DNA of 64,000 nucleotides from Staphylococcus phage LY01. Made by a program: the position numbers and the translations under genes. A model generated the notes under the pieces. It was given only the letters and a program-made list of their open reading frames with translations. It ran no database searches and had not been told where the DNA came from. The stretch lies in sequence record OR836606.1; one strand, written 5' to 3'. The stretch's first letter is position 1; every line of letters begins with the position of its first letter. Below are positions 2,783 to 60,386 of this stretch, piece after piece.

Positions 2783-2873
2783 TCACCTCATAATTATAAT
2801 ATAAATTTGAAGAATGATTTAATACAATAAAATTGGGATAATAATCATTAATTAGATTATTATCCCTTTTATA

Positions 2874-3449: not shown

Positions 3450-3461
3450 CTTGAGTCATTT

Positions 3462-6560: not shown

Positions 6561-6803
6561 CAGTCCACTTTTATAGCAATATGAAAGTAAAAAGAATATT
6601 AATTGCTGAAACGGTTTTATTAAATTAATCAGCATCAATTATTATTAATTGTTCAACGACTAAATATATTCACTCTTATTGAGAGTATGATATAGTCTGT
6701 GCTCTAAATTGATAATTTAGAGATTGTATAAAATACAGATAAAAAATTCATATCAGAATTTCTCTTAACATATTTTTATAATATGATTAGGAGGTGAAAT
6801 TAA

Positions 6804-8006: not shown

Positions 8007-8180
8007 TTAATTTCACAAAATAAAAGATATGAGAGTCGCCTGCGGTCAGCGGGAGACGATAAACGGGTGATAAGCTAATGTCTGATTAGCTTTACAAGGA
8101 GTACAGAGGTACCTCTATACGTTAGTCACTGAGCCAAGTGTATTTTATACAAGATCTTGCCTTTAGATTTAATTATTTAA
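8007..8180 (+). ncRNA. putative omega-RNA / IStron right end
   Basis: A GC-enriched segment with several hairpins (gtcgcctgcggtcagcgggagac...) lies immediately 3' of tnpB. This is atypical for a genome at about 25% GC and sits where TnpB guide-RNA scaffolds are encoded. Confidence 0.45.
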
Positions 8181-8189
8181 AATCAAGAT

Positions 8190-9556
8190 TTAACAAGACA
8201 GACAGTATGGATTACAACTAACTATAATAAATTCATTATAGAAAAATTTGGTTATAAAGAAAATGCTGAAACTGAATGGATCAAGAAAGTTATTGAAGAT
8301 GACCAAGTTATAGATTATATTGAAAATAAATCTAACTTATCTGTTAAAAAAGGTAATGCTTCTTTAATCAATAATAAATATGTAACTTCAGTTATTTATA
8401 ATAGCTTATCTAGAAATATATTAAATTTCCAAGATGACACTAATGTACTTGAATTTAATCAAAGAAGTTTATTAGCGATGATTTCTGATAGTGCTAGTTT
8501 ATCTAAAATTGATTATGATCAAGATAAATATTTCCCTATTGGTTATAATATTAATAAATCTAAATTAATATTAGCAGATAAGACAGAATCTGTTATGTAT
8601 GAATGTAGTAAGACTAATATTAAGTCAATGGAAATGAATATATTTGATTACCTTATTGATAAATTAGACAATGAAGTTGACTTTGGTGTTATTGATAAGA
8701 AATTCAGTAAGAATATTCAGGCTAATAAGACTATGGCATTTTCACGTGTTAAAATTACTAATAAATTAGTACCTACAATTTTATTATTAGGTTTCTATAA
8801 AGGTTTAACTAGTATTCTTGATCTTTATGAAGTTGATTATAAATTTACTACTGAGAATGAAAGAATTAGTATTCATGATAAAAAGAATAAAATTAAATTC
8901 CAAGATGGTTATTTAATATACTCTACTGATAAATTAAGATATGATTTATTAATGTCTGGATTAACTGTATTGCCTACATCACAATACAATTTCAGTGATT
9001 TTGAAACTGAAACACCTTACTTAGAATATTTCAATGATAAATTCTACAGTCGTAATGTTGGTAAAGGTATCAAAAATACTATGGATTTAGCAATGGATCC
9101 TATTACTAAAGAAGTATTAAGGGATTTAAAACTTCCTGATAATATGGTTGAATTATTACTATTAGCTAATACGATGTTAGAAGATGTATCAGCTAGAGAT
9201 CATAATGATATGGGAATTTATCGTGTACGTGGCCCAGAACAAATTAATGCATTATTATATAAAATGATGGCAAATGCTTATAAAGAATATTCAGATTCTT
9301 ATAATAATAAAAATCCTAAGAATATTTCAGTTAAACAAGATCAATTAATTAAAACTATTATGGAACAACCTACAGTGGATGAAGTATCTGATTTAAACCC
9401 TAACTTAGAAATAGATAAGATGACTTCTGTTACATTTAAAGGACCTGCTGGACGTAACTCTGAACAATCATATGAACCTGATATTCGTTCTTACGATGAA
9501 AGTATGCAAGGTATATTAGGAATAAGTACACCTGACAGTAATAAGGTAAATTACTT
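8190..9556 (+). CDS. rpoB: RNAP beta subunit exon 2
   Basis: The frame is open from about 8200, upstream of the annotated ATG at 8478. KGPAGRNSEQSYEPDIRSYDESMQGILGISTPDSNKV aligns to E. coli [39 protein letters not shown]. The annotated C-terminal LPLITVM* is intronic read-through. Confidence 0.6.
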
Positions 9557-9725
9557 GCCCTTAATTACAGTAATGTAATTCAATGAAAATTTATTAATTG
9601 CTAAAAATCTTTATTAAGATGATCAGCATCACTAAAAATAGTGTTCAACGACTAAATATAAATTCACTTATTATAAGTGTAAGATATAGTCTAATCTGTA
9701 TTAGATTATTATAGAATAATACAAA
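9557..9725 (+). mobile_element. mini group I intron in beta gene
   Basis: Family core elements; P8 hairpin cacttattataagtg; P9 ctgtattag...taataca. The exon ends ...AAGGT and the next exon begins after ...ACAAATG. Confidence 0.65.
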
Positions 9726-9885
9726 TGAGGTATTGTCAGACAACTTTCATATGATACACAAATTAAATCTACTCGTGGTTATACTGATGGTAGTAAAAAA
9801 GATGTAAGTGATACAGCTTTATACACACCATTAGAATTATTAAATCCATATACTAGTAGACATGCGGATATACGAAATGAGGTAA
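9726..9885 (+). CDS. rpoB: RNAP beta subunit exon 3 (about 50 codons)
   Basis: (G)IVRQLSYDTQIKSTRGY...LNPYTSRHADIRNE aligns to E. coli INSLSVYAQTNEYGFL...IPFLEHDDANRAL. Confidence 0.55.
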
Positions 9886-10031
9886 GTTCGCAATAAAATT
9901 ATTTAATTGCTGGAAAGCTTTATTAAGTTAATCAGCATCAGTTAAAGACTGTTCAACGACTAAATAATAATTACCATTTATATGGTGAAGATATAGTCTA
10001 ATCTATATTAATTTAATATAGAATAATAAAA
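9886..10031 (+). mobile_element. mini group I intron in beta gene (shortest copy; 5' leader GTAAGTTCGCAATAAAATTAT)
   Basis: Family core; P8 hairpin accatttatatggt; P9 ctatattaatttaatatag. Confidence 0.6.
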
Positions 10032-10055
10032 ATGTCACCTCGTATAGGAATGACT
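10032..10055 (+). CDS. rpoB: RNAP beta subunit micro-exon (about 8 codons, SPRIGMTG)
   Basis: Lies between two introns. With the flanking exons it reads HADIRNE-SPRIGMTG-TQAKHLIATKTNDRPLVGSG, which aligns to E. coli [30 protein letters not shown]. Confidence 0.45.
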
Positions 10056-10238
10056 GGTATTAAAATGAATGCCCTTTATTATAGTAATATAATATACGAA
10101 AAATATTTAATTGCTAAGAATCTTTAATTAAAGAAATTAGCATCAAATTAATACAATTTGTTCAACGACTAAATAATATTATACTTATTTAAGTATTTGA
10201 TATAGTCTGATCTGTATTAAATTAATACAGTTAACATA
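10056..10238 (+). mobile_element. mini group I intron in beta gene
   Basis: Begins after the exon ...ACTGGT and ends ...ACATAAATG. P5 stem shows covariation (GCTAA/TTAGC here versus GCTGG/TCAGC in other copies). P8 is atacttatttaagtat. Confidence 0.65.
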
Positions 10239-10668
10239 AATGACTCAAGCTAAGCATTTAATTGCTACTAAAACAAATGACCGTCCATTAGTTGGTTCCG
10301 GTGTAGATAAATCTTTAGCCTACCAAATTTCAGACACATTTGCTTTTAAAGCTAAAGAAGATGGAAAAGTAACTTCTATTAATGAGAAAACAGGATTAAT
10401 GATTGTTGAATATATTAATGGAGATAAAGATGTAATTGATATATCTGAAAAACTTGCTAAAAACTCTAATGGCGGATTTTATCAAAATAATAAACTTACA
10501 CCGCAATTTGAAGTAGGTAAGAAATTTAATAAAGGACAAATATTAGCTAAAAATGATAATTACTTTGCAGGTTCTGGTAGTAATAATGATATTCAATTCA
10601 CTGCTGGTAAATTATCTAAAGTTGCAGTAGCTAGCTCATATGGTATTATAAATGCCTTTCATTATAGT
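10239..10668 (+). CDS. rpoB: RNAP beta subunit exon 5
   Basis: TQAKHLIATKTNDRPLVGSGVDKSLAYQ...GKVTSINEKTGLMIVEY aligns to E. coli [29 protein letters not shown]. The exon ends ...VAVASSYG, aligning to VAFMPWNG. Confidence 0.65.
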
Positions 10669-10828
10669 AATATAATGTATAAAAAATATTTAATTGCTGG
10701 AAAGTCTTTATTAAGACAATCAGCATCATTAATTTATAATGTTCAACGACTAAATAATATTATACTTAATTAATATGTATTTGATATAGTCTAATCTGTA
10801 TTGATTAACTCTTAATGCAGTTAATATA
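10669..10828 (+). mobile_element. mini group I intron in beta gene
   Basis: Inserted between WNG|Y-NFED codons (exon ...TCATATGGT | intron ... ATAAATG | ACTTATGAGGAC). Family core elements present. Confidence 0.65.
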
Positions 10829-11591
10829 AATGACTTATGAGGACAGTTCTATTATTTCTAATAGTATGTCTGAAGCTATGTCAACTAAAGTTACTATGAA
10901 GAAAACAGTAAATTTAGCTTCCAATACGAATATTCAATATATTGTAAAAGAAGGTCAAAATGTACGTACAGGAGACCCATTAATGATATTTGAGAATTCA
11001 TTTGATGATGAAGGTATCGGTTCTTTATTAGATAAAATTGGATCTGAATTTGAACAAGAAATCCAAGATATTTCTAATAGAGCTGTTAGATCTAAATATA
11101 CAGGCGTAATTAAGAAAGTAAATATCTATTATAATGATGATATTGAAAATATGTCTCCTACATTAGCTAAATTGGTTAATAGTTATATTAATAAATCTAA
11201 GAATAAATATAAAGAATATAAAAATGCAGTTAAAGGTAACAAATCTACATTACCTGGATTAGATGTAGATATTCCTGCAGTTGAAAAAATCAATAATGAA
11301 AAAATTAAAGGTGAAAAAGTTGATGGTGTTCTTATTGAAATCTTTACAGAATATGAAGATGATATGAGTATCGGTGATAAGATTAGTTTCTATGGGGCGT
11401 GTAAAACGGTCATTGCTGACGTTACTCCACCTGACGAATCCCCTTATGCAGAATATAGACCTGATGAAGAAATTGAAGCTATATTCTCTCCATTAAGTAT
11501 CGTGTCTCGTATGACTACAGATATATATCTCATGTTGTTTACCAATAAAGCACTCATAGAGCTTAAGAGAAAAGTTAAAGATATGCTTTAA
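10829..11591 (+). CDS. rpoB: RNAP beta subunit C-terminal exon
   Basis: TYEDSSIISNS aligns to E. coli YNFEDSILVSE. MSIGDKISFYGACKTVIADVTPPDESPY...EAIFSPLSIVSRMTTDIYLMLF aligns to GDKMAGRHGNKGVISKI...[20 protein letters not shown]. Confidence 0.75.
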
Positions 11592-26457: not shown

Positions 26458-26527
26458 TCTCCATTTAAATTATTTGTATAATAAATATTTCATTATTAAT
26501 ACATCGTTATAATATATATTTAAAAAT

Positions 26528-30335: not shown

Positions 30336-32249
30336 TTAAATATCAAAATCAAATAACGGATCAAACATTGAATCTCCATCTTTACTGAAGAAGTTATTAG
30401 TTTCATCAGTACTTAATTGAGCTTTAATCTTTTCAAATATTAATGATTGTACTGGTGAAGGTGAACTTAAAATAGCACTACCTACATTTTTTAATTCAAT
30501 ATTAGGTTCAAAGTTAGGGTCTTTATAATTGATTCTTTCTTCATAACCTCCATTTAAGAATACCATATTTCTAATAATAGTTTCTAAATGAACACTCATA
30601 ACATTTGTACCTGATTTAAGTAATAAATCTGTTACATCATTGAACATTGCCTGATAGTTTTTTTCTTCATAGTCATTTCTAATGTATTTAGTACTTTCTA
30701 ATATAGATCGTATTTTAAGAAGTGGGTCAGCGACACCTTCATTTTTAATTTTAATATTAAATAAGAAATTTTCTTTTAAGTCTTTCATACTGAATATGAA
30801 TGCATTTTCGTCTTCATCGTAAAAATTATCTATAGTTTCAATATTTTGGTCTGGTATTTTAAGAGTTACAGGAGATTTAACAGTATGAGTTTTATTACCT
30901 ACTTTAAATTTAAAGCTTTTAGCTTTATATCTTCCATATTCATAATCTTCATTAATAATCATTTCATCAATAATGACTTTAGTCTTTTCATTACGAGGAA
31001 CAATATTGTCTCCAGAAAATTCAAAATGTTCTTTAAAGATATCAGGCCAAGAGAAACCAGATAATTGTACTGCTTGCAAGTGTTTTGTTGAAAGTAATTT
31101 TTGAGTCATAGGCTCTGTTAATCTTAAAGTAGCCAAAATGCCTACAGATAAGTTTCTATTAATATCGTATAAACGTTTGCCGTAACAAGTTTGACATATT
31201 TTTCCTTCAGATTCGGCACATGTAATAGGGGAACGTAATGGAACAATTTGTCCTATTAAATGAGTGTCTTCTTTAGAATTAATTAATTTTAATTCTTGAT
31301 CCTTATCATCATAATAGAATCTATCATTAAATCTATCTAATTTATCTTGACTGTCCATATTAACATAAACAAAATGTTTACTTCCGCAATCTTCATTTTC
31401 TGATAATTTTAAATCTGATGTTAATAAAGTAATTTTACGGTTTAAGTAGCCTGATTCACGTACTTTATTCTTAGAGTTCATTAATGCGTTTAATGAAGAT
31501 TCTGCATCAATAGCAAATTGTGTTGTATCTTTTAAACCACGCATGAATGAGGTATCAATAATATCAGTTACAACATCGCCACGAATATCTGGTTTATATC
31601 CCACGAAACTTAAAACTTCATTTAATTGTATCTTATTAATACCTGTTCCTGAATGTAAGAAAGTTTTATAATCATTTTCTTTATCAGATTTAATACGTTC
31701 AATTAATTTATGCATATTAGGTTTTTGAACTTCATTAATAATTTGTTGATAGTTTAAGCTAGGATCAATGTCTTCTTTATTAAAGTTAATTAATTTTTCT
31801 ACTTCTTTATCTTCATTAGCTAATCTCATAATATCATATAATGAAATAGAAGGACCGTCTAGAGGTAAAATATATTCATTTGAAAATATAGTTAATTCAT
31901 CAATAATAAATGCAATAGATTGACTAACTTTTATTGGGTCATGTCCTTCATGAATAAAATTGACAACAACTTTGTCAAAATAATCATAATAATCATCAAT
32001 AACAGTTGGATTAACTAGGTATTCTTCTGTAAACTCTTTATTCATATCTCTAAAAGGTTTACCTAATACTAATAGAGTGAAATAATTACTTTTAGAAATA
32101 TTGTCTTCAAAATAGTCTTGCATTCTTCCTTGAGGATTACCAATAATATCTTTCTTTAAATCTTCTAAGATATTAAAGTAATTATCTGAATGTAAATAAT
32201 CATTGTACTTACCTAATTTTAAGTCTAAAACAATTTCTTCATTTGTCAT
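30336..32249 (-). CDS. second RNAP beta-prime-like subunit, C-terminal half (regions F-G), intron-free paralog
   Basis: [42 protein letters not shown] aligns to E. coli beta-prime [88 protein letters not shown] aligns to [21 protein letters not shown]...[23 protein letters not shown]. Confidence 0.6.
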   Translation of the reverse strand: [637 protein letters not shown]

Positions 32250-32349
32250 ACCTAATTCATTCTCCTTGTAAATAAATATTTTATACTACATTTATATAAT
32301 ATAAATTTGAATAACGAATTGTATTTAATCCGTTATTCAAATGTCAATA

Positions 32350-34800
32350 TTAGAAATCGTCCTCAAGATTATCTTCAGAATTGTCTGAAGAAGATAAATT
32401 ATCTTCATCGCTATTGCTATTTACCATTTCATTTCTTTTTTTATCTTTATTTATTTCATCTTTAATGTTATTAATAATATTTTCGTATCTATCATAATCT
32501 AAATTAGACATGAATTCTTGTTGAACTAATTCTTTACGAAATAGACGTTTTAGTTTTTCGTTATCATCTTCTTCTTCATCACCGGAAGCTTCTGAAGTAT
32601 ATAAAGGAACTAAAAAGTCTACCATTTGTGTAACAGCTCCAACTTCTTCATTAAGATTTCCTAAATTTAAGAATACTGGTGCTGGGAAGTATGCTTCAAT
32701 TTCTTGTAGTTTATTATTTAATTCCTCATTATATTTTTTATCTTTACTATTTACATTTTCTAAATAATAAAGCTTTCTTAGTACATCAGTATAGAATTTA
32801 CCAAAAGATTTTTGATAATTAACTACACGTCTGACAAAGTTATTATTTTGCATTGATAATGAGCGAGCATAATCAGTTTCATTTTCAGCATCAATATAGT
32901 TTAAAGGAACTCCTGTACCTGATATAACTGATTTTTTAAGCCATTCTAAAAATTCATCATTAATATCAACTTGAATACCAGAAATTGTATCTATTTCTAA
33001 AGGAGAAGTTCCTTCTTTATTTTGAGGGATGTACATATTCTCTAAGTTACCTACTTGATTAAATAATGTTTGAACTGAAGTTCCATCACCAAATAATCCT
33101 GTAGACATTTCGTTCTGTCTCACATTACGGATTATTTCTTCTACAGTTCCTTCATAATCATCATCTAAACCTGCATTAACTCTAAATACACGTCTATCTC
33201 TTGATTGATTTAATTTAACCATCATTGTAGTTATTAAAGTACTTAAATATAATTTAGCAAAGAATAATGATTTACTAAGTTTAGAGACTCCATAAGTTTT
33301 TTGACTATCTAATTTATGATGAAATACTTCATCCGCTTCTAAGAAAGTCATTTTAATACCATTTTCAATAATATAATTCTTACGGATTAATCTATATATA
33401 ATATCTTTAAATGAATCATTTTTATTAATAAAATCCATATTGATTTTTTGAGAAATACCTTTAACTATAACATCAACTAATCCTTGATATGCCATAACAG
33501 TGTTTCCATTTTCATAATATGAACCAGAGGTAGCATTCATTCCTGAATTAGGATTTTTAGAATTGCTAGACATGTTATTTCCTGCAACACCGCCAGTAAC
33601 AGGATCCAGATTAGTAATTCCCATGCCTCCTGAAAAAGATCCTGTTTGACCTTGTTTCTGATATCCGTCTCCCATTAAATTATTCATAGCGGACAATAAA
33701 GGATTACTACCTCCTCTTAAATCAGTTCCAGAATCAGGTTCAATATAAATATATCCAATGCACATACCATCAATTTCTAATTTAATCATATCTTCAGGTT
33801 CCACAGCTCTAAAATATATTGAGCCAGACTTTAATTTATTAGATTTATTTTTATTATTTGCTTTATTTAGAAATGTTTGTAAGTCATTAGATCCTTTGTA
33901 TTTACCTATATCCGAAAGTAATTCAGAAGAATTTTCAAAAAATATTACATTTTCATTAATGCTCTTTAATATTTCATTTTTAAAATTAGCTCTTTGTTCA
34001 TTTAATTGCTCTTCATCTTTAATGGGTTTCTCAAATTGATTATTAAATTCATTAATTATAATATCTAAATCAGATTCTTTAAGATTCTGATCGATAAATG
34101 ATTCATTAATTACTTTTTGATTCTCTTGTGTTTCTCTTCCTAATACATCATCATTTTCATTAAGAATTTCTTCAAAATCAGATTTAGTATCTTTAATAAT
34201 ATAGAATACGTCACCTAATAATAAACCTTCACGAATAGAAGTATAAGTTAAATCATCCAAATTATATTTCTTTACAATCCTATCTAATTCATTTAAAACT
34301 TCTTTATTTTCTGATTCATTTTTATTATTTGTGTCTCCATAACGATACATCAATGATAATTTAGAAGTATCGTCAGGTGCAATAATAGAAGTAGCGAATA
34401 CATCAATACTTGTTGATATTTCAGGTATAAATTTATCTATAATTCTGTAGTCATCATATCTAGAAACTCTAGCAATTTCAGATGAAAAGTCTTGATTTTC
34501 AATATTATTTTCTATGAAATCTTTAATGAAATCTTTTTTATCGTCACCCGTATTAGATTTTCTAAAATTTCTATTCTTACCGTTCACTTTAGATGCTAAA
34601 GATAAGATATCTCCATTACTATTACCATGATTACTTTTACGTCTTATCTTTTTTAATCTATCATCAAAATCAGGTATATTATCAGATAAATTCTTAGGAT
34701 TTTCTTCATCTCCTAATCCTCTGACCATATCCTTATTGATATTATTTATATTTCTCTGAGTTTTATTCTCATCAGCCAAATTTAAAACACTCCTTTTCAA
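32350..34800 (-). CDS. large hypothetical protein (816 aa), candidate divergent RNAP subunit or virion protein
   Basis: Adjacent to and co-oriented with the beta-prime-like paralog. No conserved RNAP motif (GDKxAGRHGNKG, NADFDGD) can be confirmed by eye. Confidence 0.35.
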   Translation of the reverse strand: MKRSVLNLADENKTQRNINNINKDMVRGLGDEENPKNLSDNIPDFDDRLKKIRRKSNHGNSNGDILSLASKVNGKNRNFRKSNTGDDKKDFIKDFIENNIENQDFSSEIARVSRYDDYRIIDKFIPEISTSIDVFATSIIAPDDTSKLSLMYRYGDTNNKNESENKEVLNELDRIVKKYNLDDLTYTSIREGLLLGDVFYIIKDTKSDFEEILNENDDVLGRETQENQKVINESFIDQNLKESDLDIIINEFNNQFEKPIKDEEQLNEQRANFKNEILKSINENVIFFENSSELLSDIGKYKGSNDLQTFLNKANNKNKSNKLKSGSIYFRAVEPEDMIKLEIDGMCIGYIYIEPDSGTDLRGGSNPLLSAMNNLMGDGYQKQGQTGSFSGGMGITNLDPVTGGVAGNNMSSNSKNPNSGMNATSGSYYENGNTVMAYQGLVDVIVKGISQKINMDFINKNDSFKDIIYRLIRKNYIIENGIKMTFLEADEVFHHKLDSQKTYGVSKLSKSLFFAKLYLSTLITTMMVKLNQSRDRRVFRVNAGLDDDYEGTVEEIIRNVRQNEMSTGLFGDGTSVQTLFNQVGNLENMYIPQNKEGTSPLEIDTISGIQVDINDEFLEWLKKSVISGTGVPLNYIDAENETDYARSLSMQNNNFVRRVVNYQKSFGKFYTDVLRKLYYLENVNSKDKKYNEELNNKLQEIEAYFPAPVFLNLGNLNEEVGAVTQMVDFLVPLYTSEASGDEEEDDNEKLKRLFRKELVQQEFMSNLDYDRYENIINNIKDEINKDKKRNEMVNSNSDEDNLSSSDNSEDNLEDDF

Positions 34801-34843: not shown

Positions 34844-35626
34844 TTATATATTATAAATTAAAGTCTTCAGTTTTGCAACAAATTTATCCTGATAAATTGA
34901 AAATTTTAACATAATCAATTCACTATATACATCTGTTTCTGGGGCATAGATATCTATTTTAACTAAAGGACAAATTATTTTATCTTTAGACTTTTTATAT
35001 TTTAACCCTAATAAATACTTTTTAGAAGTTCTAAAATCAATAAGGTAGTCTTTTTCATTATAAATATAATAAGGGTCCTTAACAATAACTTTGTCTTTGG
35101 TAAATATAAATTTAAAGAACTCGGAAGGTTTCCTTTCTTTAATATCTAATAAACTATCATTATCTAATTTAAAATTTAGACTTGGTTTAAAAGAACTAAA
35201 ATAATTAATAGCTTCTAATGAATAATTTAATTCTTCATCTAATCTATCTTCATCAAATTCATCATTATTAATAATAGTTTCTAAATCAGATTCTCTAGTT
35301 ATTTTAATACCACTATTATCAATTTCATTAAAAAATTCAACTTTAATAATTTTATCCCCTTTATTCTTTCTTACTTCAATAAAATCTTCTACATTAAAAA
35401 TGCAATTTTCAACAGGTAAAAGATAATCATAAATTGGATTATCTTCTATAATTTCTACTTCGACTGCATTGGGATTGTCATCTGATTTAGAATAATTTTT
35501 TATAATGTTTTTATTTAAACTAATATACTTACTTCCATCAACAATATTATTGAATAACTTAGATATCTCTTCAAAAGTCATTACTAATTTATTTACTATT
35601 TTTGATTCTTCAATAATAATGGACAT
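34844..35626 (-). CDS. hypothetical protein
   Basis: 260 aa ORF; its start overlaps the stop of the DNA polymerase part-1 gene (ATGA). Confidence 0.4.
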   Translation of the reverse strand: MSIIIEESKIVNKLVMTFEEISKLFNNIVDGSKYISLNKNIIKNYSKSDDNPNAVEVEIIEDNPIYDYLLPVENCIFNVEDFIEVRKNKGDKIIKVEFFNEIDNSGIKITRESDLETIINNDEFDEDRLDEELNYSLEAINYFSSFKPSLNFKLDNDSLLDIKERKPSEFFKFIFTKDKVIVKDPYYIYNEKDYLIDFRTSKKYLLGLKYKKSKDKIICPLVKIDIYAPETDVYSELIMLKFSIYQDKFVAKLKTLIYNI

Positions 35627-36548
35627 TAACCAATTTCCCCCTCTAATTCTTTAATGATATCATCAGAAGCTTCAATAAGAGAAGGTAAACCATGAAACTC
35701 TTGAGCAAAAGCAACACTGTCTTGACTATTAAATTTACTTACGAATTCAGTATTAAAATCATAATTATCTTTATCTTGCTCATATTTAGGTACCGTTATT
35801 CTATCTTTATCAAGAATATTCATCTTACCTACATGTCCTTCAGGTGTTATATTAAATGCTCTAATAATAGATGGATATAGAGAACTTAAGTCAAAGTCAC
35901 AAACATTACTAAATAATCTATTAGATCTAATATCTTTACCTTTAACCAATACGTCTCCATTACGTTCGATTAACATCATATCAGCTACAAATCCGCCACG
36001 AATTTTATCAGCATTAGGATCCGATAATAATTTTGAATGATTATTGCTTAATACATATCCTTGATTTTCAAAGAATACTGAACTACGATTTCTTAAACAA
36101 ATAGTTTTCTTAAGTGCTTTACTAGGTCTTGTTCTAGTCATGTCTACAATAGAGAATAATAGATCAAACATATTAGTGTTATGTTCAATCAATGCAGCTA
36201 ATACAGTATCCTTAATATTATAAAGAATAAATGTATAGTAATCTCTAAAATGTAAATCAGAGATAGAACCTTCATATACATCTTTAGTAACTCCTGCTTC
36301 TTTTTCTCCAATATCATTTAACTTAACTGATTCCAAAGCACCATTGGGCTTATTAATATTTGCATATAACGCTAATTGGTCAATCCAATTAGTATAAGAA
36401 TTAGTCTCAAATGTAGAAGATCTATTAGCCATATCAGTAGCATTTTTATCTAATTTATAATATGCTTTTTTATCTTCAAATTCTTTAGAACAGAAATAAT
36501 CTGCAGGATTTTCTCCATTAGCTCTAATACGTTCAAATATTGCAGGAA
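35626..36548 (-). CDS. family B (T4 gp43-like) DNA polymerase, part 1, exon 3 (polymerase motif A)
   Basis: DFDLSSLYPSIIRAFNITPEG aligns to T4 gp43 DLTSLYPSIIRQVNISPET. The exon begins (K)LDYDFPAIFERI, aligning to T4 IEGFDVPYIMNRV. It ends ...ELEGEIG* with a stop, so the polymerase gene is split here. Confidence 0.75.
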
Positions 36549-36714
36549 AGTCATAATCTAGCTTTTATATTTATTAAATATAAAATAGACTATATCATAC
36601 TCATTAATATGAGTGAATATATTTAGTCGTTGAACAACTCTTATTAAGTTGATGCTGATCATTCTAAAAAGAACGTTCCAGCAATTAATATTCTTTTAAT
36701 GGAACCTATTATCA
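36549..36714 (-). mobile_element. mini group I intron in DNA polymerase gene (minus orientation)
   Basis: Family core elements. Splits the Exo II motif between ...ICTAWN and LDYDFP (T4 ...IFTGWN|IEGFD). Confidence 0.6.
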
Positions 36715-37018
36715 ATTCCATGCAGTACATATGTCAGGCTTACTAATTTCATTAATATAATATAAGAAAGATTTAATTACTTGCATTTCTGTATCTAATT
36801 CATATATCTCAAATTCTAAACCTAAATTTTTACCAATTTCACTATTTTCATTATTATAAATTTCATTTAAGTTTTTAATTAATTTATCTTGATCTTCCAT
36901 AGTTTCTTTATAAGTGTCAGTGTCATATTTAAGAGCAAATGTTAATACTTTTTTCTTACTCCAATCCACTACAGTTATAATATTTATCTCTGCCTCAGCT
37001 TTAAGCGGGTCCGGGACA
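36715..37018 (-). CDS. DNA polymerase part 1, exon 2 (Exo II region)
   Basis: VPDPLKAEAEINIITVVDWSKKKVLTF aligns to T4 FPDPMKAEYEIDAITHYDSIDDRFYVF. PDICTAWN aligns to PAIFTGWN. Confidence 0.7.
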
Positions 37019-37151
37019 ATTTGTATTAAAAGTAATACAAATTAGACTATATCTTCTTAGTAATATATTTAGTCGTTGAACATTAAATTTTTAATGATGC
37101 TGATTATCTTAATAAAGAATTTCCAGCAATTAATATTATTTTATCTGAGCT
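37019..37151 (-). mobile_element. mini group I intron in DNA polymerase gene
   Basis: Family core. The junction ...TTAAAGGT | intron | CCCGGACCC restores LKVPDP in frame. About 133 nt, among the smallest copies. Confidence 0.6.
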
Positions 37152-37642
37152 ACCTTTAACCCAGTTACTTGAGATCCATCAACCTCAATATCGAATAGAC
37201 ATATATCTATACCAACTTTACTGTCTAAATTCTTTTTAATATACTCATTGATATTATAATCTTCTATATTTATATCAGAACCATGAGCATTATTTAATAA
37301 ATGGAAATCTTTTAGTTTTCTATATTCTTGCCAATTACCTGACTTCATAATTCTATCGTATTCTGCTTTATCTTGAGAATTACCAGCTTCTTTAACTACT
37401 GATTTGATAATATCTTTATGCTTACAAATAACAGTTCTTACTTTATCTTTTTCAATAGAACCTACAATTTTATTAGGAGGTAACCAATGTTCATCTTTAG
37501 TTACATAATAATGCATCATAGGATCTGTTATTTCCATATGTTTTTTAGTACCATCCTCTTCTTTAACTACCATTACTACTTTTTCTTTACCAGAAGCAGT
37601 TTCTTTTTTATTTAAATATGTTGATTTAATGAATCTTCCCAT
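37152..37642 (-). CDS. DNA polymerase part 1, exon 1 (N-terminus, Exo I motif)
   Basis: ICLFDIEVDGSQ aligns to T4 ANCDIEVTGDK (Exo I DxE). The annotated tail VAQIK* is intron read-through. Confidence 0.7.
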
Positions 37643-44888: not shown

Positions 44889-44992
44889 TTACTTAACTCC
44901 TTTTATTATAATAATCCCAATACTAATTTAATAGTATTGGGATAACATTTTTATAATATATATTTATTCTAATTTTCAGAATTAGGCGATAC

Positions 44993-48015: not shown

Positions 48016-48120
48016 ATCTTTTCCACTCCCTTAATTAGATTAATATAGAGATAATGAATTAATATAATTCATTATCTCATTTTTATAATATATATTTACA
48101 TACATTTTTCATCTAAATAA

Positions 48121-48165: not shown

Positions 48166-48198
48166 TTATTCTTTAGTTAAAGAGTATAAAGCTTGTAC
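48166..48198 (-). CDS. rpoC: RNAP beta-prime N gene, last exon (VQALYSLTKE*)
   Basis: Joined to the previous exon it gives ...NESNMLVQALYSLTKE, aligning to E. coli ...PSQDVVLGLYYMTRD. Confidence 0.5.
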   Translation of the reverse strand, partial: VQALYSLTKE

Positions 48199-48327
48199 CA
48201 TATTATTTATGATAATTAGACTATATCTTCTTAGTAATATATTTAGTCGTTGAACAACTTATATTAAGTTGATGCTGATTAATCTAATAAGATACTTCCA
48301 GCAATTAATATTATTTATTGAGAGCAT
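48199..48327 (-). mobile_element. mini group I intron (minus orientation)
   Basis: Family core elements; 3' end ...ATAAATAATATG. Confidence 0.55.
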
Positions 48328-48461
48328 ACAAGCATGTTACTCTCATTACCCAAATTACGTACTGAATTACCAGTGTAGTTTAGGTAGTTAGTTTTCTTAT
48401 TAAGAAGTTTATTAGCTTCTTTATTAGCCTCTACAGTCCAGAGAGATCTGATAGAAATCAT
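48328..48461 (-). CDS. rpoC: RNAP beta-prime N gene exon (DMISIRSLWTVEANKEANKLL...)
   Basis: D-MISIRSLWTVEANKEANKLLNKKTNYLNYTGNSV aligns to E. coli [36 protein letters not shown]. Confidence 0.6.
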
Positions 48462-48621
48462 ATCCATTTACGTTATCTATATTAAGATAATATAGATCAG
48501 ACTATATCTTTACTTTAATAAGCATATTATATTTAGTCGTTGAACACTATTTGTAGTGATGCTGATTAAGATAATAATCTTTCCCAGCAATTAATAATAT
48601 TTAAATACGGCAATATAAATT
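48462..48621 (-). mobile_element. mini group I intron (minus orientation)
   Basis: Family core; 5' end GGT|AATTTATATTGCC..., 3' end ...AACGTAAATG|GATATG. Confidence 0.6.
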
Positions 48622-48630
48622 ACCGTCAAA
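48622..48630 (-). CDS. rpoC: 9-nt micro-exon TTTGACGGT (Phe-Asp-Gly of the catalytic NADFDGD loop)
   Basis: The splice model gccgaT | intron | TTTGACGGT | intron | GATATGATTTCT reads ...LGADFDGDMISIRSL, reconstituting the universally conserved ADFDGD. No other junction choice gives the motif. Confidence 0.5.
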
Positions 48631-48811
48631 CGTTTATGTTATCTATAATAAATGATATCATAGACCAGACTATATCATCATCTCAATTGAGATATATTAT
48701 ATTTAGTCGTTGAACAACTTATATGAAGCTGATGCTGATTGCTCTAATAAGAGTTTTCAGCAATTAATAATATTTTCATTCTTAAATCACTTTAAGAAGC
48801 GACTTTTTCAA
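48631..48811 (-). mobile_element. mini group I intron (minus orientation)
   Basis: Family core. Its 5' leader GTCGCTTCTTAAAGTGATTTAAGAATGAAAATATTATTAATTGCT is shared with the copy at 49393-49550. Confidence 0.6.
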
Positions 48812-48825
48812 ATCGGCACCTAACG
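48812..48825 (-). CDS. rpoC: 14-nt micro-exon (..LGAD) of beta-prime N gene
   Basis: cgttaggtgccgat lies between the large intron and the next mini intron and supplies G-A-D of GADFDGD. Confidence 0.4.
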
Positions 48826-49200
48826 CTATTTAATTTATAATTAAATTTGGACTATATCATAAACCTAAATATTAGGTTCCCTCACACTTCGGGAATTCAT
48901 TTCCCTACTCTACTCACTTCGTTATAGTATTTCAACTATACTTATTCTCTATATAAGAGTTACATTTATTGTTTTCGATAGTCTCTGAACGTTTATCCAT
49001 CATGTGGATACTTCGCTGCTAGACTTTCCCATTATTAAATACCCTTAGCATTTTCAGCATAGGTCATCAAAGAGATTTTTTCTGTCTTTCGACTGCATGT
49101 CACGCTATCCATTACTGGCATACGTTGTAGCTCTCTAAGCATTAGGGTTTACAAGCAATTCATAAGGTATTTTTTATCCTATATTACTATAAGACTGGAG
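48826..49200 (-). mobile_element. larger group I intron (about 370 nt, no ORF), same R/S core with expanded peripheral domains
   Basis: The minus-strand reading contains GAATTGCTTGTAAAC (P), GTTCAGAGACTATCGAAAAC (R-like) and GATATAGTC (S). It is about 80% identical to the segment at 56265-56640. The 5' boundary is uncertain (about 49190-49215). Confidence 0.55.
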
Positions 49201-49392
49201 CGTAAGTTACTCCGGCATAACTGTTGTGTATAATAGCGGTATCTATAAATACATCTTCATCAACAGGATATTCATGAACAACTTTAGGATAATCTTTAAG
49301 TACAATATCGTCTAAAGTAATTTCAGGAATTGTATCAACTGTAGTCAATATTTTAATTTTGGCAGGTGCAACATTCAAGAAATTTTCGCAAA
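49201..49392 (-). CDS. rpoC: RNAP beta-prime N gene exon
   Basis: (C)ENFLNVAPAKIKILTTVD...NSYAG; follows region ...HVVYSRYPINTLV, which aligns to E. coli EHPVLLNRAPTLHRL. Confidence 0.45.
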
Positions 49393-49550
49393 CTATATTA
49401 AATTAATACAGATCAGACTATATCATTACCTACTTTTAGGTATATTATATTTAGTCGTTGAACAAGTTTAATTGACTTGATGCTAATTAACCTATTAAAG
49501 TCTTTTAGCAATTAATAATATTTTCATTCTTAAATCACTTTAAGAAGCGA
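49393..49550 (-). mobile_element. mini group I intron (minus orientation)
   Basis: Family core elements; 3' end ...TTTAATATAG. Confidence 0.6.
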
Positions 49551-50712
49551 CCAGTGTATTAATCGGATATCTTGAATAAACCACATGCTTATCTTCACAT
49601 ATTTCTGTAGCAGCTATATAAAGTAAATCAATTACAGTAAAAGTTCTACCTAAAGTATTTTCAAATAATTTAACTTTATGACGTTTACCTTGTCTATCAT
49701 TTACATATATAGGACTAAATCTTTCATTAGGATCCTTAATAAAGAATTCTAACATATTCTTAATAGCTTTATCATCAAACTGTTCATATACTTCTTCTAA
49801 TGATAATTCATTTTCATCAGTTCCAGTAGCGGTTTGGAAGGCATCTTTGTGGATTTCAATAAAATCGATAATGTATTTGCTAAAGAAAGGTAAGAATAAA
49901 GTAACTAATTGAGTTAATGGTACCCCTAACTGACCAAATTCAATTTGCATTTCATCCCATTTATTTGAATTAATCTTAGGTGAAGAAATAACTGAGCGAG
50001 TACTGTTATCTACCGTCTTACCTAAAATATTTCTTTGCATCATACCAGTTTTACCTGATAGTTCTCCTGAAGTTAATTTAACGTATATTTCAAATAATTT
50101 ATTTTGAATATTATATTTAGTCGTATTAGCTACAAAGTCAAATGAATTAAAACTAATTGAATCTACAGATCTTAAGATGCTTGCATACATATCATTTATT
50201 TCTTCAGTATCTTGAATTTCCCCTGAAGTTTCATTAGGATTAAAGTCACGATAGAAAGCAGGTATTACGAGCCATTTATCTGTGAATATTCTATCTTTAG
50301 GAGTATTTTTAAGCATATCAATTTTTTCATTTCGGATACGAGAATCATTTTTTCTAAATTTAAGATTTTCATAATTATCGTATAAGAAATTTAATCCAGT
50401 TTCACCATTTTCATCTGGAACTAATTGTCCTTTCTCAATTTTAAAGTAATCAGAACCTTGAATACATAGATCTATATTCTTATCTAATTCTCTCATAGCT
50501 TTATAAGCTACAGGATTCAAGTATTTGCCACCTAAATTAATCCAACCTATATTATTCTTTCTTTCATCAGTACCTATTAAACCAAATATTTCATATGAAA
50601 ATAAACCATCTTCTTTAGGTAAAGTTCCTGAATCAAAGAAAATAGGATTAGTAACTTCTTTAGCTCCATAAGCTGTAATAACTTGATCAACATTAACCAT
50701 ATCTATTTTCAT
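49551..50712 (-). CDS. rpoC: RNAP beta-prime subunit N-terminal exon
   Basis: LPKEDGLFSYEIFGL aligns to E. coli KPERDGLFCARIFGP. GWINLGGKYLNPVAY aligns to GHIELASPTAHIWF. WLVIPAFYRDF aligns to WMILTVLPVLPPDLRP. NILGKTVDNSTRSVISSPKI aligns to [21 protein letters not shown]. Confidence 0.75.
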
Positions 50713-52863: not shown

Positions 52864-53050
52864 TTATTTAAAAATGTATCTTAAAAAAGATACATTTCTA
52901 TTACAATTTTATAATATATATTTTAACATAAATTAAAAATTTATGCAAGAAATTTTATATGAAAGTTGATAAATTTTTCTAATTATATAAAATCAATTAT
53001 TTTATCTGAATACATACCAATATTTTCCAATATGTATCCAGATAAATTAT

Positions 53051-53751
53051 TTAGAATTTAATCATATTAGATACAAATGAACTATTTGAAGATTCCAATA
53101 CTCTAACACCAATAGATTCAATAATATCTTTACCTGGTTTAATATGATCTTCAATCATACTATCATAGTCAATAAAAGGTCTAAACTCTTCAGGAATTGT
53201 ATTACCTTCAACTGCAATTACATTTAAACCGTTTTTAACTAAACTTTCATTCTTAAATACTTCTCTAAATCTATCTAAAGTATCTTCATCAGTTATCTTA
53301 TTTTTAATATCTCCAAATGTACTAATATTCAATTTAACTGCTAATATCTTAGCAGGTAATGCTATTTCTTTTTCTGGGAACATTATATTCCATGCTAAAG
53401 CAGCTCTATATGCCATTTGAGAATAAGGGTCTTTATATACCTCAGCATTATTAGCTTTAAACGGTTTTAAGAATTCGATTTCTCCATTATCTAATGATTT
53501 CTTAATCATTTCTTCTATATCTTTAAATTTACGTATTATCTTAATACGATCTACACCGGTTTTATTTTCTAAAATATCTTTTTGTAATATTTCAGTAAAT
53601 AGTTCTCTAATACGTTTATTAGTATTAACTTTTCTAATAGCCATACCTTTAACATCTAAATCTGGAGGTTGAATTAAATTACCCTCTTGTTGAATTACTG
53701 ATGATGCATAAGTTTTCTTTTTATCAGTTGTTAATTGTTTATCAAGTAAAA
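53051..53751 (-). CDS. DNA polymerase part 2, C-terminal exon
   Basis: The frame is open upstream of the annotated Met. ...DKKKTYASSVIQQEGNLIQPPDLDVKGMAIRKVNTNKRIRELFTEILQKDIL aligns to T4 gp43 ...[51 protein letters not shown]. Confidence 0.6.
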
Positions 53752-53893
53752 CATTTTTATTAGCTTTATTAAATTAATAAAGATTAGACTATATCTTATA
53801 CTTATATTAAGTACATTTATATTTAGTCGTTGAACTTAATTTCTTAAGCTGCTGATTTAATTAATGAACTATTCCAGCAATTAATAAATTTAT
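53752..53893 (-). mobile_element. mini group I intron (minus orientation) in DNA polymerase part 2
   Basis: Family core elements; 3' end ...GCTAATAAAAATG. Confidence 0.55.
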
Positions 53894-54161
53894 CTTTCTG
53901 TATATCGCTATACAACGGAGCATTAACTTGATAATACTCATTTTTCATTGATATTAAACCTAAATGTTCTTCCTCTAATCCTACATCTTTACAGAATCTA
54001 TAGTAAGACAATTCTAATAATTTAGTTATTTGATAGTTAATAATAGATATATTACTTACACGTTGTTCTAATTTATCCTCTAAACCATTCTCTGCAATTG
54101 GAAAATCTTCAGGTTTTAAAGATTTAAATTTTTCGTATAACGGATCTAAGTGAACAAAGTT
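53894..54161 (-). CDS. DNA polymerase part 2 exon (after motif C)
   Basis: NFVHLDPLYEKF... follows DTDS directly. T4 gp43: DTDSVYVCVD. The annotated ATG is the ATG of the intron 3' end ATAAATG. Confidence 0.6.
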
Positions 54162-54315
54162 CATTTATGTTAGCTGTATCAAATATAATACAGATCAGAC
54201 TATATCTTCTTTAGAAATATATTTAGTCGTTGAACTTAATTTCTTAAGCTGCTGATTTGATTAATAAATCATTCCAGCAATTAATATTTTTTATTGACAG
54301 CAATTTTTTATCACA
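54162..54315 (-). mobile_element. mini group I intron inserted right after polymerase motif C (DTDS|)
   Basis: Family core elements. Read-through tail ...NCWNDLLIKSAA of the upstream ORF is intron-encoded; the same tail occurs on ORF 53844..54164. Confidence 0.6.
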
Positions 54316-54888
54316 ACTGTCAGTATCTATAGTTAATACGCTTCTACGTTTCTTGTAATTCATTCTATACATTCTATTATAATCTTGATAATTATATATA
54401 ACCCAATCTTTTAATATTTCAAATAATTCATCTAATAATGGAATCATATCTTCAGGAGGATCATTTGGATCTAAGAAATCTTCTCTGCCAGTCATTTTAC
54501 TAATTTTATTATCAAATATATCGGTATGATCAATTAACCCAAATAAATTATTTTTGAAATATACTTTATTTTTATCTTCTTGACTTAATTTACTAAATAC
54601 TTCTTCTAACTTAAGAAAATCTTCTTCACTATAATCTTCTTCAACATTAGAAACTAAACCTTCTAAAATTTCTTTATCAGTTGGAATTGATTTTATCTTA
54701 ATATCATGATCTTCATATTTTTCACTAATTATTCTTAATATATAATGATATATTTCATCAATCTTCATGAAAAAGATTTTACCGCCAATAAATCTTTCTA
54801 AAGCTATCGCTGAAGTAGTTACAATATCAACTGCTATATAAATTCGTGAATTTAATTTAATTAATTCGAATTTATTCGACTTCGTCAT
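54316..54888 (-). CDS. DNA polymerase part 2 exon containing motif C (LTIDTDS)
   Basis: RSVLTIDTDS aligns to T4 gp43 FIAAGDTDS. The true 5' end of the exon is the IStron 3' splice site near 54889 and is not determined. Confidence 0.55.
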
Positions 54889-55030
54889 TACTTTTACTTA
54901 CTTTGCACTTTAAGTTTTTCGTTATAAACTACTTCAACATAAAGTGTCAACCAAAGCAGAGGTTAAAGCTCTTAAGTCATCACATTTGGACATTCAAGAG
55001 AATTTAAATCTAGTTAGCCTGCCCAACAAA
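54889..55030 (-). ncRNA. putative omega-RNA / IStron right end of TnpB-2
   Basis: GC-enriched segment ...gctgctgtcaacctcaaaatgtacggtaagcgttttgttgggcaggctaac... overlaps the tnpB 3' end and extends beyond it. Confidence 0.4.
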
Positions 55031-56158
55031 ACGCTTACCGTACATTTTGAGGTTGACAGCAGCGTTATAATCTCTATCCATTTTATTTCCACAATCACAC
55101 TTATACCATCTATCTGATAACTTCATCTTATTTTCTTTAGTTAAGACTTGACCACAATTAGAACATAATTGAGTTGATGGGAACCATCTATCTGCTACAA
55201 TAATAGTATTACCATTGCTTTCAGCTTTTTGTTTTAATAAAGTTCTGAATTGTCTCCAATTCATTGCAGAAATAGATTTAGACAAATTTCTATTTTTAAT
55301 CATATTTGAAACTTTAAGATCTTCAATTGTAATATACTGATAATTTTTAATTAAGTTAGTAGTTATTTTATGAAGATAATCTTTTTTAATGTTATTAATT
55401 CTCATCCATATTTTTTGTATTTTGGTTTTCAATACATTGTATTTGTTAGAACCATAAACTTTACGAGATAATCTTTTTTGATAGTACTTAATCTTATTGT
55501 ATAGTGGAATCAATTTATCATTTAATGAATGATATTTCTTAAATTTACCGAAATCATCATTAATGATAGCTAAATCTTTTACACCTAAATCAATACCAAC
55601 ATGGCTATTGTTATGAATTAAGCTCTTATTATTATCAACTTTCATTACTATTGAAGCGAAATATTTTCCAGCATATTTAGATATAGTAACTTCTTGAATG
55701 GAATTATAATTAAACGGGATAGATTCTTTCATTTTAATTAATGAATTAATTCCTTGAAGTTTTAATTTATTATTTTTATCGCCTTTAATTTGTAATGAAT
55801 AATTATTCTTCTTATAGAACCTTGTACTTAATTTAGAATGTTTTTTAGATTTAAATCTCGGATACTTACCGTAACCTTTCCACATCATATTAAAAGCTTT
55901 ACCTAAATCTTCAGTTGCTGTGTCCATAACTTGAGATATTTGATCTTTTTCCCAATCTTCTTTACATTTTTTAAGTTCATCACGAACTTTCCTATGTGTT
56001 GGTTTTGGAAGAGATGTATCAAGTTGATGAGCATTCCACATTTGTTTCCATTTATTAAGCCCTTTATTATAAATATATCTAGAATATCCAAATGCTTGAT
56101 TAAATACTTCTTTTTGTTCTTTATTTGGTTTCAATTCGATTTTAATAGATTTGTACAT
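55010..56158 (-). CDS. tnpB: TnpB (IS200/IS605 OrfB-family RNA-guided nuclease), no TnpA
   Basis: MYKSIKIELKPNKEQKEVF (N-terminal HTH); RuvC-I VGIDLGVKDLA; RuvC-II ITIEDLK; Zn-finger CSNCGQ...CDCGN; RuvC-III DRDYNAAVNL. Confidence 0.85.
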   Translation of the reverse strand: MYKSIKIELKPNKEQKEVFNQAFGYSRYIYNKGLNKWKQMWNAHQLDTSLPKPTHRKVRDELKKCKEDWEKDQISQVMDTATEDLGKAFNMMWKGYGKYPRFKSKKHSKLSTRFYKKNNYSLQIKGDKNNKLKLQGINSLIKMKESIPFNYNSIQEVTISKYAGKYFASIVMKVDNNKSLIHNNSHVGIDLGVKDLAIINDDFGKFKKYHSLNDKLIPLYNKIKYYQKRLSRKVYGSNKYNVLKTKIQKIWMRINNIKKDYLHKITTNLIKNYQYITIEDLKVSNMIKNRNLSKSISAMNWRQFRTLLKQKAESNGNTIIVADRWFPSTQLCSNCGQVLTKENKMKLSDRWYKCDCGNKMDRDYNAAVNLKMYGKRFVGQAN

Positions 56159-56724
56159 GTGATTTCACCTCCTTCAAATATATAATATATACTTAAAGTT
56201 AGTGATGAATTTTAATTAAATTAAACTCACGAATTCCTGATTTAGTGTTTCCACATCAGTTAAATAGCAAGACTATATCATATTCTATCAGAATGATAGA
56301 ACCCTCGCACTTCAGGAATATTATTTCCCTACTCTACTCACTTCACATAGTATTTCAACTATGCTTATTCAGGCGTTAATCCTGTGCTTTCGATAGTCGT
56401 TGAACGTTCATCCATCATGTGGATGCTTCGCTGCTAGATTTTCCATTAGTCCACCCTTAGCACTTAATTTACATTAAGCTTTTATTTCAGCCTAGGTAAT
56501 CTTAGAGTATTTTTTCTGATTTTCATCTGCTTTCACGCTATCCATTACTGGTATACGTTGTAGCTCTCTAAGCTTTAGGAGTTTACAAGCAATTCACGAG
56601 GTTTGCTCACTTCTTTCATGAATTAAACTAACTTTAATTCACTATGAAGTAAGGGAGTTTTGATTAACTATTTTAAAATAATTTAAGTGAGCAATTCGTG
56701 TTAAATCACTTAAATTATATTAAA

Positions 56725-57234
56725 CTAAAATAGTTTCTTTTCTCCACTATAAGTAGTTGCTGGACCTGAATTAGCATCATAGAATGTACTATTTTTCTGT
56801 ATCATAGCACCGTAATAACTGTTAGCTAAGATCTTAATTGTTTTTTGTTCATTCATATATTTATCATGTAAAACATCATCTTTACCTTTATAAATAAACA
56901 TATTGTGCTTAGCTACTTTACGAGAATCTATAAAGTCTTTTAACATTTCCGCATTTAAATTTTTTCTTTGTGATTGAGGCTGATAAATAGAACCAGAACC
57001 AGTTACAATTAAATTATTATTAATAATTTGTCTTAAGGTTGTATCTACATTCATTTTTTGTCCTGATATTTCTATTAAAGCTGGATCTAAATGTTTTTTA
57101 ATATATTCTCTACAGGCATTAATTAGTTTCTCATCATCAATATCAGGTTTTCTTATTTTAATTAATTTAATTAAATTTTCTAAATAACCCGTTATAGCCC
57201 TTTTACGTTCATATTTATTATCTTGATTAGACAT
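56725..57234 (-). CDS. DNA polymerase part 2, first exon (starts with its own Met; polymerase motif B)
   Basis: QKTIKILANSYYGAM aligns to T4 gp43 motif B KILINSLYGALG. GPATTYSGEK aligns to ATAITIFGQ. N-terminus NKYERKRAI aligns to T4 QRKDWKKKM just after the part-1 split point. Confidence 0.65.
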   Translation of the reverse strand: MSNQDNKYERKRAITGYLENLIKLIKIRKPDIDDEKLINACREYIKKHLDPALIEISGQKMNVDTTLRQIINNNLIVTGSGSIYQPQSQRKNLNAEMLKDFIDSRKVAKHNMFIYKGKDDVLHDKYMNEQKTIKILANSYYGAMIQKNSTFYDANSGPATTYSGEKKLF

Positions 57235-60313: not shown

Positions 60314-60386
60314 TTCACTCTCCTATTAATTAAAAATTAAATTGAGTTGATAATTTAACTTACCAACTCAATTATATAATATATAT

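Follow-up and report, generated by a model that had tools for sequence, protein, structure and literature searches.

Region 30336-34800 of the window (the whole 64,000-nt stretch of Staphylococcus phage LY01 DNA that we analysed) holds two open reading frames (ORFs) on the minus strand. The ORF at 30336-32249 encodes 637 aa, starts with ATG and has no intron; the ORF at 32350-34800 encodes 816 aa, and between them lie 100 nt with a hairpin, a promoter motif and an AAGGAG site. A first-pass annotation had read the 637-aa ORF as the C-terminal part of a beta-prime subunit of a multisubunit RNA polymerase (RNAP) and the 816-aa ORF as a candidate partner subunit of the same enzyme. The window has a G+C content of ~20-30% along its whole length. 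In a search of a phage collection, region 30336-34800 matched nine Staphylococcus jumbo phages and no others, at a nucleotide identity of 92-93% with UFV_DC4, S6, Madawaska, MarsHill and PALS_2 and ~80% with SA1, AH12, PB50 and Machias; LY01 was identical to none of the deposited records. Staphylococcus jumbo phages of the MarsHill/Madawaska/Machias clade are relatives of the Bacillus phages AR9 and BpSp (Korn et al., bioRxiv 10.1101/2020.12.14.422802), and, judged by sequence, the window is that of a MarsHill/S6-like Staphylococcus jumbo phage in the AR9/PBS1 lineage of phiKZ-related phages. The two genes have orthologs in the same order in S6, UFV_DC4, Madawaska (gp141 and gp140), MarsHill and PALS_2. 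The amino acid identities to S6 are 95.3% for the RNAP subunit and 96.0% for its neighbor, and Madawaska and MarsHill annotate the same pair as non-virion RNAP (nvRNAP) beta-prime-C and portal vertex protein.

The beta-prime gene at 30336-32249

In the 637-aa translation a bridge-helix motif was found at residue 265 (about residues 265-280) and a trigger-loop 'TQ...T.H' motif from residue 378, with an insertion domain after the trigger loop. These are the strings that had been quoted as beta-prime regions F and G, and the reading of the ORF as a beta-prime C-terminal part was borne out by the Pfam family RNA_pol_Rpb1_5 (PF04998), which scored 36.5 bits against a gathering cut-off of 28.5 bits. 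Zinc cysteines are present at C288, C344, C352 and C355 (EDCGS at 286, ITCAE at 342, ICQTCYG at 351), and we take the four to be the second zinc site, going by their positions in E. coli beta-prime. The D.DGD (DxDGD) motif was absent in a motif scan of the translation.

Profile search, which had been proposed as the check on this ORF, assigned it to an RNAP family and not to a non-RNAP one. The best PHROG family was phrog_3015 ('RNA polymerase beta subunit', E 1.3e-69), and the best PDB match was chain 7S00_D of the AR9 nvRNAP (E 5.8e-82, residues 23-632 of 637), followed by 7OGP_D, phiKZ gp74 (PHIKZ074; E 3.5e-16, residues 197-393). Dozens of bacterial beta-prime chains were matched at the bridge-helix and trigger-loop regions, among them E. 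coli residues 727-820 and M. tuberculosis residues 960-1019. The NCBIfam rpoC2/rpoC models gave E values of ~1e-12 at scores well under their equivalog cut-offs, which is as expected for a distant viral homolog; the match to TIGR02388 (rpoC2_cyan) was weak (E 5.7e-13, 47 bits vs the equivalog cut-off of 467 bits), and by such scores the protein is no cellular rpoC2. Cyanobacterial rpoC2, or beta-double-prime, results from a similar split of beta-prime after the double-psi beta-barrel (PMC7598289). Homologs of the 637-aa protein were found in 266 phage records, nearly all of them phiKZ-type jumbo phages.

The 7S00 structure is the AR9 nvRNAP core; its beta-prime-C subunit is gp154, whose residues 400-508 form an insertion domain in the trigger loop (PMC9209446). 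AR9/PBS1 gp154 (PDB 7S00, 7S01, 7UM0, 7UM1) falls into the same length class as the LY01 protein (631 vs 637 aa), is collinear with LY01 residues 23-632 including the gp154 insertion region (400-508), and has the same split point after the catalytic domain; amino acid identity is only ~33%, and the genomic neighbors of the AR9/PBS1 gene differ from those in LY01. With phiKZ gp74 (7OGP) the homologous core runs from the bridge helix to the start of the trigger loop, and by analogy the role in a five-subunit nvRNAP would be the same; the N- and C-terminal thirds of gp74 cannot be aligned by sequence to the LY01 protein, and phiKZ, unlike LY01, is a nucleus-forming phage of a Gram-negative host. 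The proposed intron-free state of the gene was confirmed by its single-stretch alignment to gp154 and by the lack of any insertion in 9/9 related phages. The PB50 and S6 orthologs have equal length and 81-95% protein identity, and Madawaska gp141 is annotated 'non-viral RNA polymerase beta-prime subunit, C-terminal'. We assigned the 637-aa protein to the nvRNAP because it matches AR9 gp154 over its full length, is homologous to phiKZ gp74, and resembles nvRNAP orthologs much more closely than it does the paralog from the virion RNAP (vRNAP) of its own phage.

The gene is preceded on the minus strand by a Shine-Dalgarno AAGGAG at 32262-32267, 12 nt upstream of the ATG at 32249 (a ribosome-binding site is annotated at the equivalent place in Madawaska), and by an AR9-type early (virion-RNAP) promoter-like motif, AAATTTATATTAT-N6-G, at 32289-32308, with a predicted start at G 32289. 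The motif has one mismatch to AAATATATATTAT-N6-G, the early-promoter consensus of AR9 taken from PMC5312081. At <=1 mismatch this consensus had nine matches in the window vs 0.88 expected, and 0/100 shuffles reached nine. Eight of the nine are on the minus strand, at 2789-2808, 26502-26521, 32289-32308, 44946-44965, 48078-48097, 52904-52923, 56175-56194 and 60369-60388, and the ninth is on the plus strand at 11120-11139. Most of them stand just upstream of ORF starts, e.g., that of a free-standing 727-aa HNH endonuclease (ORF 599-2782). The 8-mer TATATTAT, the early-promoter core according to Korn et al., was not enriched in the AT-rich window (40 vs 39 expected), and a scan for sigma-70-type promoters found such sites no more frequently than expected. 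We concluded that only the extended AR9 consensus is informative for early promoters in the window; it has been kept in LY01, and we infer an early-promoter function for it there.

Two RNA polymerases in the window

Three other RNAP genes in the window are of the vRNAP, so that one nvRNAP gene and three vRNAP genes (beta-prime-mid, beta and beta-prime-N) lie together on this stretch. The vRNAP beta-prime 'mid' gene is at 2874-4431 (minus), with exons 4431-3634, 3456-3441 (16 nt) and 3286-2874; its introns, 3633-3457 (177 nt) and 3440-3287 (154 nt), were delimited by alignment to the uninterrupted MarsHill ortholog. Their removal leaves a frame of 1227 nt and 408 aa, as long as the gene in MarsHill and DC4; in MarsHill and Madawaska the ortholog is a 1227-nt coding sequence without interruption, labelled 'viral RNA polymerase beta-prime subunit (mid-domain)'. 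The first-pass annotation had called this gene an intron-containing beta-prime C. Its introns are real in this alignment, but the label has to be changed, as the gene encodes the middle piece of the vRNAP beta-prime and not a full beta-prime-C. The claim that it is distinct from the gene at 30336-32249 held: the 408-aa and 637-aa proteins share 25% identity over 126 aa (E 3e-7), the best PHROG family of the former is phrog_2962 as against phrog_3015, and a PDB search with the 408-aa protein matched bacterial beta-prime chains and neither gp154 nor gp74. For these reasons we placed the two genes in different lineages. The vRNAP beta gene, at 4971-11591 (plus), has five introns of a small family described below, one of them with a tnpB-like ORF, and the vRNAP beta-prime N-terminal gene, at 48166-50712 (minus), consists of six exons that together encode 503 aa.

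With both lineages represented in the window, LY01, judged by its genes, is a phage that encodes two multisubunit RNAPs of the phiKZ/AR9 type, in agreement with the earlier proposal of a phiKZ-like arrangement in an AT-rich phage of a Gram-positive host. The use of two RNAPs is known for AR9-type phages (PMC5312081; PMC7598289), and MarsHill-like phages have five subunit genes for each of the two enzymes, vRNAP and nvRNAP (Korn et al., bioRxiv 10.1101/2020.12.14.422802). The presence of two split multisubunit RNAPs has already been published for AT-rich jumbo phages of Gram-positive hosts, for AR9 in 2016 and for the MarsHill/Madawaska/Machias clade in the 2020 preprint of Korn et al.

It is very unlikely that the gene at 30336-32249 belongs to the packaged virion enzyme and that its position next to a capsid gene reflects late structural co-expression. 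The gene does adjoin the portal gene, and the 637-aa protein of LY01 is known from its gene alone. Its full-length alignment, however, is with gp154 of the nvRNAP crystal, its homology extends to gp74 of the purified phiKZ nvRNAP, the vRNAP beta-prime lineage is held by the other gene at 2874-4431, and an early-promoter motif stands upstream. The virion proteome of DC4 is weak evidence in the same direction: vRNAP beta was detected and the nvRNAP beta-prime-C ortholog was not, in a shallow data set that missed the portal too.

The portal gene and its relation to the polymerase gene

The mechanical ORF at 32350-34800 (816 aa) can be shortened to a likely start at TTG 34779, which follows an AGGAG site at 34790-34794 and agrees with the Madawaska annotation; the gene then spans 32350-34779 (minus) and encodes 809 aa. 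A profile search of the ORF against RNAP families had been proposed, and it found no beta or beta-prime domain. The sole PHROG match was phrog_3004 ('virion structural protein', head and packaging; E 3.4e-46), the T4 gp20 portal (3JA7) was matched over 176 residues of the conserved core (E 7.6e-6), and AR9 g128, a 'portal vertex protein', showed 34% identity (E 2e-89). Further homologs are structural proteins of PBS1, BpSp, LPJP1 and phiR1-37; AR9 g128 and PBS1 gene 15 are labelled 'portal' or 'virion structural protein', and phiR1-37 g160 'phage structural protein'. A profile made from five family members matched a single PDB sequence, PHIKZ129 (12 chains, 9XPE_M; E 2.6e-10). The annotation 'portal' is used in Madawaska, MarsHill, SA1, PB50, Machias and DC4. 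No Pfam family matched the 816-aa ORF at E up to 1, and no Pfam family was common to any two of the five members aligned; in the NCBIfam and PDB searches the only match besides portals was a sub-threshold NusG/KOW-like one (E 0.02-0.28), which we judged to be due to chance. We concluded from these matches that the 816-aa ORF is a capsid portal protein and not an RNAP subunit. The portal core that it has in common with T4 gp20 (3JA7, 6UZC) and phiKZ gp129 (9XPE) covers residues about 400-700. The LY01 portal is much larger than T4 gp20, and in comparison with gp20 and gp129 it has a low-complexity N-terminus of ~110 residues, a G/S/N-rich insert at ~380-440 and an acidic C-terminal tail.

A terminator-like hairpin of 16 pairs with a T-rich tail (32305-32342, minus) begins 8 nt past the portal stop codon; terminator-like sites numbered three in 6 kb vs 0.8 expected. 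Together with the promoter motif at 32289-32308, these consensus signals predict that the portal and nvRNAP beta-prime-C genes are separate transcription units. The earlier proposal that the 816-aa ORF is a beta-like or accessory partner subunit in the RNAP of 30336-32249 had some grounds, since the ORF adjoins the RNAP gene on the same strand and has a suitable size, and the very weak NusG/KOW-like match could be added to them. We now consider it extremely unlikely: RNAP beta and beta-prime domains are absent, every significant match is a portal or virion structural protein, the spacer between the genes holds the hairpin and a separate promoter motif, and the adjacency is lost in AR9, BpSp, PBS1 and LPJP1. 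In addition, Madawaska annotates the known nvRNAP partners at other loci, with beta-N and beta-prime-N side by side at the genome start and beta-C at ~250 kb. The chance that the gene at 30336-32249 is a decaying or non-functional beta-prime duplicate without a role in transcription, for which we found nothing specific, is negligible in view of the intact 637-aa ORF, which retains the bridge helix, the histidine motif of the trigger loop and all four zinc cysteines, the 81-95% protein identity to the equally long orthologs of PB50 and S6, and the ribosome-binding site and promoter motif of its own.

The surroundings of the two genes vary in related phages. The order DNA-polymerase exonuclease subunit, hypothetical protein, portal is common to the window, AR9 and BpSp, which adds to the evidence for the portal identity; after the portal gene AR9 and BpSp have a virion protein gene and then the tail sheath gene on the other strand. 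In PBS1 the beta-prime-C homolog is ~21 kb away from the portal homolog, and in Listeria phage LPJP1 the portal gene is followed by one that has no relation to beta-prime-C. A functional link between portal and RNAP, considered on the basis of synteny, was rejected since the adjacency is not kept in LPJP1, AR9 and BpSp. The two genes would be neighbors only because the genome of this lineage is not arranged in functional modules.

Taken together, the gene at 30336-32249 almost certainly encodes nvRNAP beta-prime-C, with a portal gene in a separate transcription unit next to it at 32350-34779. Several points weigh against this reading. The roles of both proteins in LY01 are known from sequence alone; the promoter and terminator are consensus matches only; the four remaining nvRNAP subunit genes lie outside the window, and we infer their presence from relatives; the DC4 data set, which is shallow and missed the portal, is the only virion proteome from a close relative.

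If the nvRNAP assignment is correct, the 637-aa protein would be one half of a beta-prime that is split after the catalytic DFDGD domain. It would bring to the enzyme the bridge helix and the second zinc site, the trigger loop together with the insertion domain, and the clamp and jaw elements of the C-terminal part. By analogy to AR9 and phiKZ its partners would be beta-prime-N, the two beta pieces (beta-N and beta-C) and a specificity subunit like gp226/gp68, all from genes in other parts of the genome, and the assembled nvRNAP would transcribe late genes. Of the five nvRNAP subunit genes in AR9, four are expressed continuously and the fifth early, and 41 of the 43 virion protein genes are late (PMC5312081). 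LY01, following the AR9 programme, would have an early nvRNAP gene beside a late portal gene: the injected virion RNAP would switch on the gene at 30336-32249 early from the motif at 32289-32308, and the portal, a predicted dodecameric capsid protein, would be the product of a late structural gene that ends at its own terminator-like hairpin.

Introns and TnpB-bearing elements of the polymerase genes

The window contains a family of small introns, hereafter mini-introns, which are ~140-185 nt in size except for one that carries an ORF. All 15 have an identical 16-nt R element, GTTCAACGACTAAATA, for which 0.87 copies were expected in the window even with three mismatches allowed; the exact matches start at 3346, 3525, 36620, 37066, 48240, 48530, 48700, 49448, 53820 and 54220 on the minus strand and at 6651, 9643, 9951, 10160 and 10741 on the plus strand. 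The insertions in the beta-prime-mid gene have in common P, Q, R and S elements of the classic group I kind. In a hand-drawn P3-P9 fold with a P3/P7 pseudoknot, 96.6% of the cells in the 15 aligned cores pair vs 25-44% in slid controls, and compensatory changes occur in 13 of the 30 pairs. Rfam gave no match at the gathering threshold in the whole window, nor at the E-value threshold in 2500-5000, and the Rfam scan of the DC4 authors also misses the family. Because Rfam gave nothing, intron identity was set by alignment to intron-less orthologs and by covariation. A literature search on the smallest group I intron returned nothing. The copies are distributed over vRNAP beta-prime-mid (two), vRNAP beta (five), vRNAP beta-prime-N (four), and the exonuclease and catalytic subunits of the DNA polymerase (two each); in the syntenic region, the vRNAP and DNA-polymerase genes have 15 mini-introns in LY01 vs three in Madawaska. 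Machias and AH12 have at least 25 copies per genome, with twin introns in beta-prime-mid as in LY01, so the family exists in deposited genomes.

It had been suggested that only one of the two polymerase sets is invaded by introns. This is true within the window, where the three vRNAP genes have 11 mini-introns and one intron of a second type, and nvRNAP beta-prime-C is intron-free here and in the nine relatives; the bridge-helix codons homologous to those of nvRNAP beta-prime-C host twin mini-introns in the vRNAP paralog. It does not extend to the clade. The nvRNAP beta-C gene of Madawaska is annotated with three exons, and the intron core 16-mer of the window occurs in it twice without a mismatch. 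The nvRNAP beta-prime-N gene of PB50 appears to be interrupted, as a 2.9-kb query matched it in two pieces over 4.7 kb, and a homing endonuclease is annotated within the matched stretch. Both polymerase sets have been described as intron-disrupted in the Staphylococcus clade (Korn et al., bioRxiv 10.1101/2020.12.14.422802), and AR9 nvRNAP beta-prime-N has also been reported as intron-disrupted. These interruptions in Madawaska, PB50 and AR9 count against a strict rule. A real bias, in which selection or target-site specificity keeps the early-needed nvRNAP beta-prime-C gene free of introns and the late vRNAP and DNA-polymerase genes serve as sinks or as competition weapons (as PhiPA3 gp210), is in our view unlikely.

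Some of the mini-introns are separated by very short exons. The twin mini-introns at 3287-3633 (minus) sit in the bridge-helix codons of vRNAP beta-prime-mid with a 16-nt micro-exon between them. The beta-prime-mid genes of MarsHill, Madawaska, S6 and DC4 are uninterrupted, and the more distant Machias and AH12 have twin introns at the same site, a distribution that suggests intron transfer independent of the genome backbone. In vRNAP beta-prime-N (48166-50712, minus) the introns are 173, 384, 181, 157 and 140 nt long, and the codons of the catalytic GADFDGD motif are divided among three exons, including micro-exons of 14 nt (48825-48812) and 9 nt (48630-48622); the last 128 aa of the spliced 503-aa product are identical to those of Madawaska. 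Within vRNAP beta, four mini-introns are crowded into ~1.3 kb (9549-10844, plus), one of the four being common to Madawaska, and a 24-nt micro-exon flanked by two mini-introns (10035-10058, plus) encodes SPRIGMTG. Short targets are reused: two mini-introns follow CCGAT and have the guide GUCG in common, one follows CCGGAT with the guide GUCC, and four follow GGT with the guide GCC, with the pairings read by eye. The target sites are 49557-49562, 48812-48817 and 6546-6551, and the exon ends before the introns with R elements at 3525, 9643, 10160 and 10741. Such reuse suggests that the mini-introns spread to new sites by short guide pairing or reverse splicing and not by protein-directed homing.

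Two larger insertions carry tnpB genes, one at 6552-8201 (plus) in vRNAP beta (ORF 6804-8006, 400 aa) and one at 54834-56741 (minus) in the DNA polymerase catalytic gene (ORF 55010-56158, 382 aa). Both TnpB ORFs are complete, with HTH_OrfB_IS605, OrfB_IS605 and Cas12f1-like TNB domains all above the Pfam cut-offs, and they are 31% identical to each other; the ORF at 55010-56158 has its own early-promoter motif (56175-56194). At the 5' end of the vRNAP beta insertion there is an intron core of the mini-family; in the DNA-polymerase insertion an R-like element differs from the 16-mer of that family at three positions. The layout of these insertions, which have no TnpA, resembles that of IStrons. 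A second group I intron type was noted at 48826-49209 (minus), with the R element GTTCAGAGACTATCGA, and at 54834-56741 (minus), with GTTCAACGACTATCGA. It sits after GGAG, so that the 5' exon appears to end in G and not in the usual U, and in the beta-prime-N copy GGAG can pair with the intron sequence CUCC. A 5' exon ending in G has likewise been reported for group B (IS607-type) IStrons (PMC4227781; PMC13565253). The family-B DNA polymerase is encoded by two genes ~16 kb apart, for the exonuclease subunit (35626-37642, minus) and the catalytic subunit (53051-57234, minus). Both are split by introns, the former by two mini-introns and the latter by two mini-introns and the TnpB element.

The finding at 30336-34800 adds no new biology, as the RNAP pair is published and the gene pair nvRNAP beta-prime-C and portal is annotated in GenBank relatives. 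Its practical value is the correct annotation of the window, with genes for nvRNAP beta-prime-C, portal and vRNAP beta-prime-mid. The more interesting material, which Rfam and published annotation pipelines have missed, lies outside this region, in the dense, very small group I introns and the TnpB-bearing intron elements of the vRNAP and DNA-polymerase genes.

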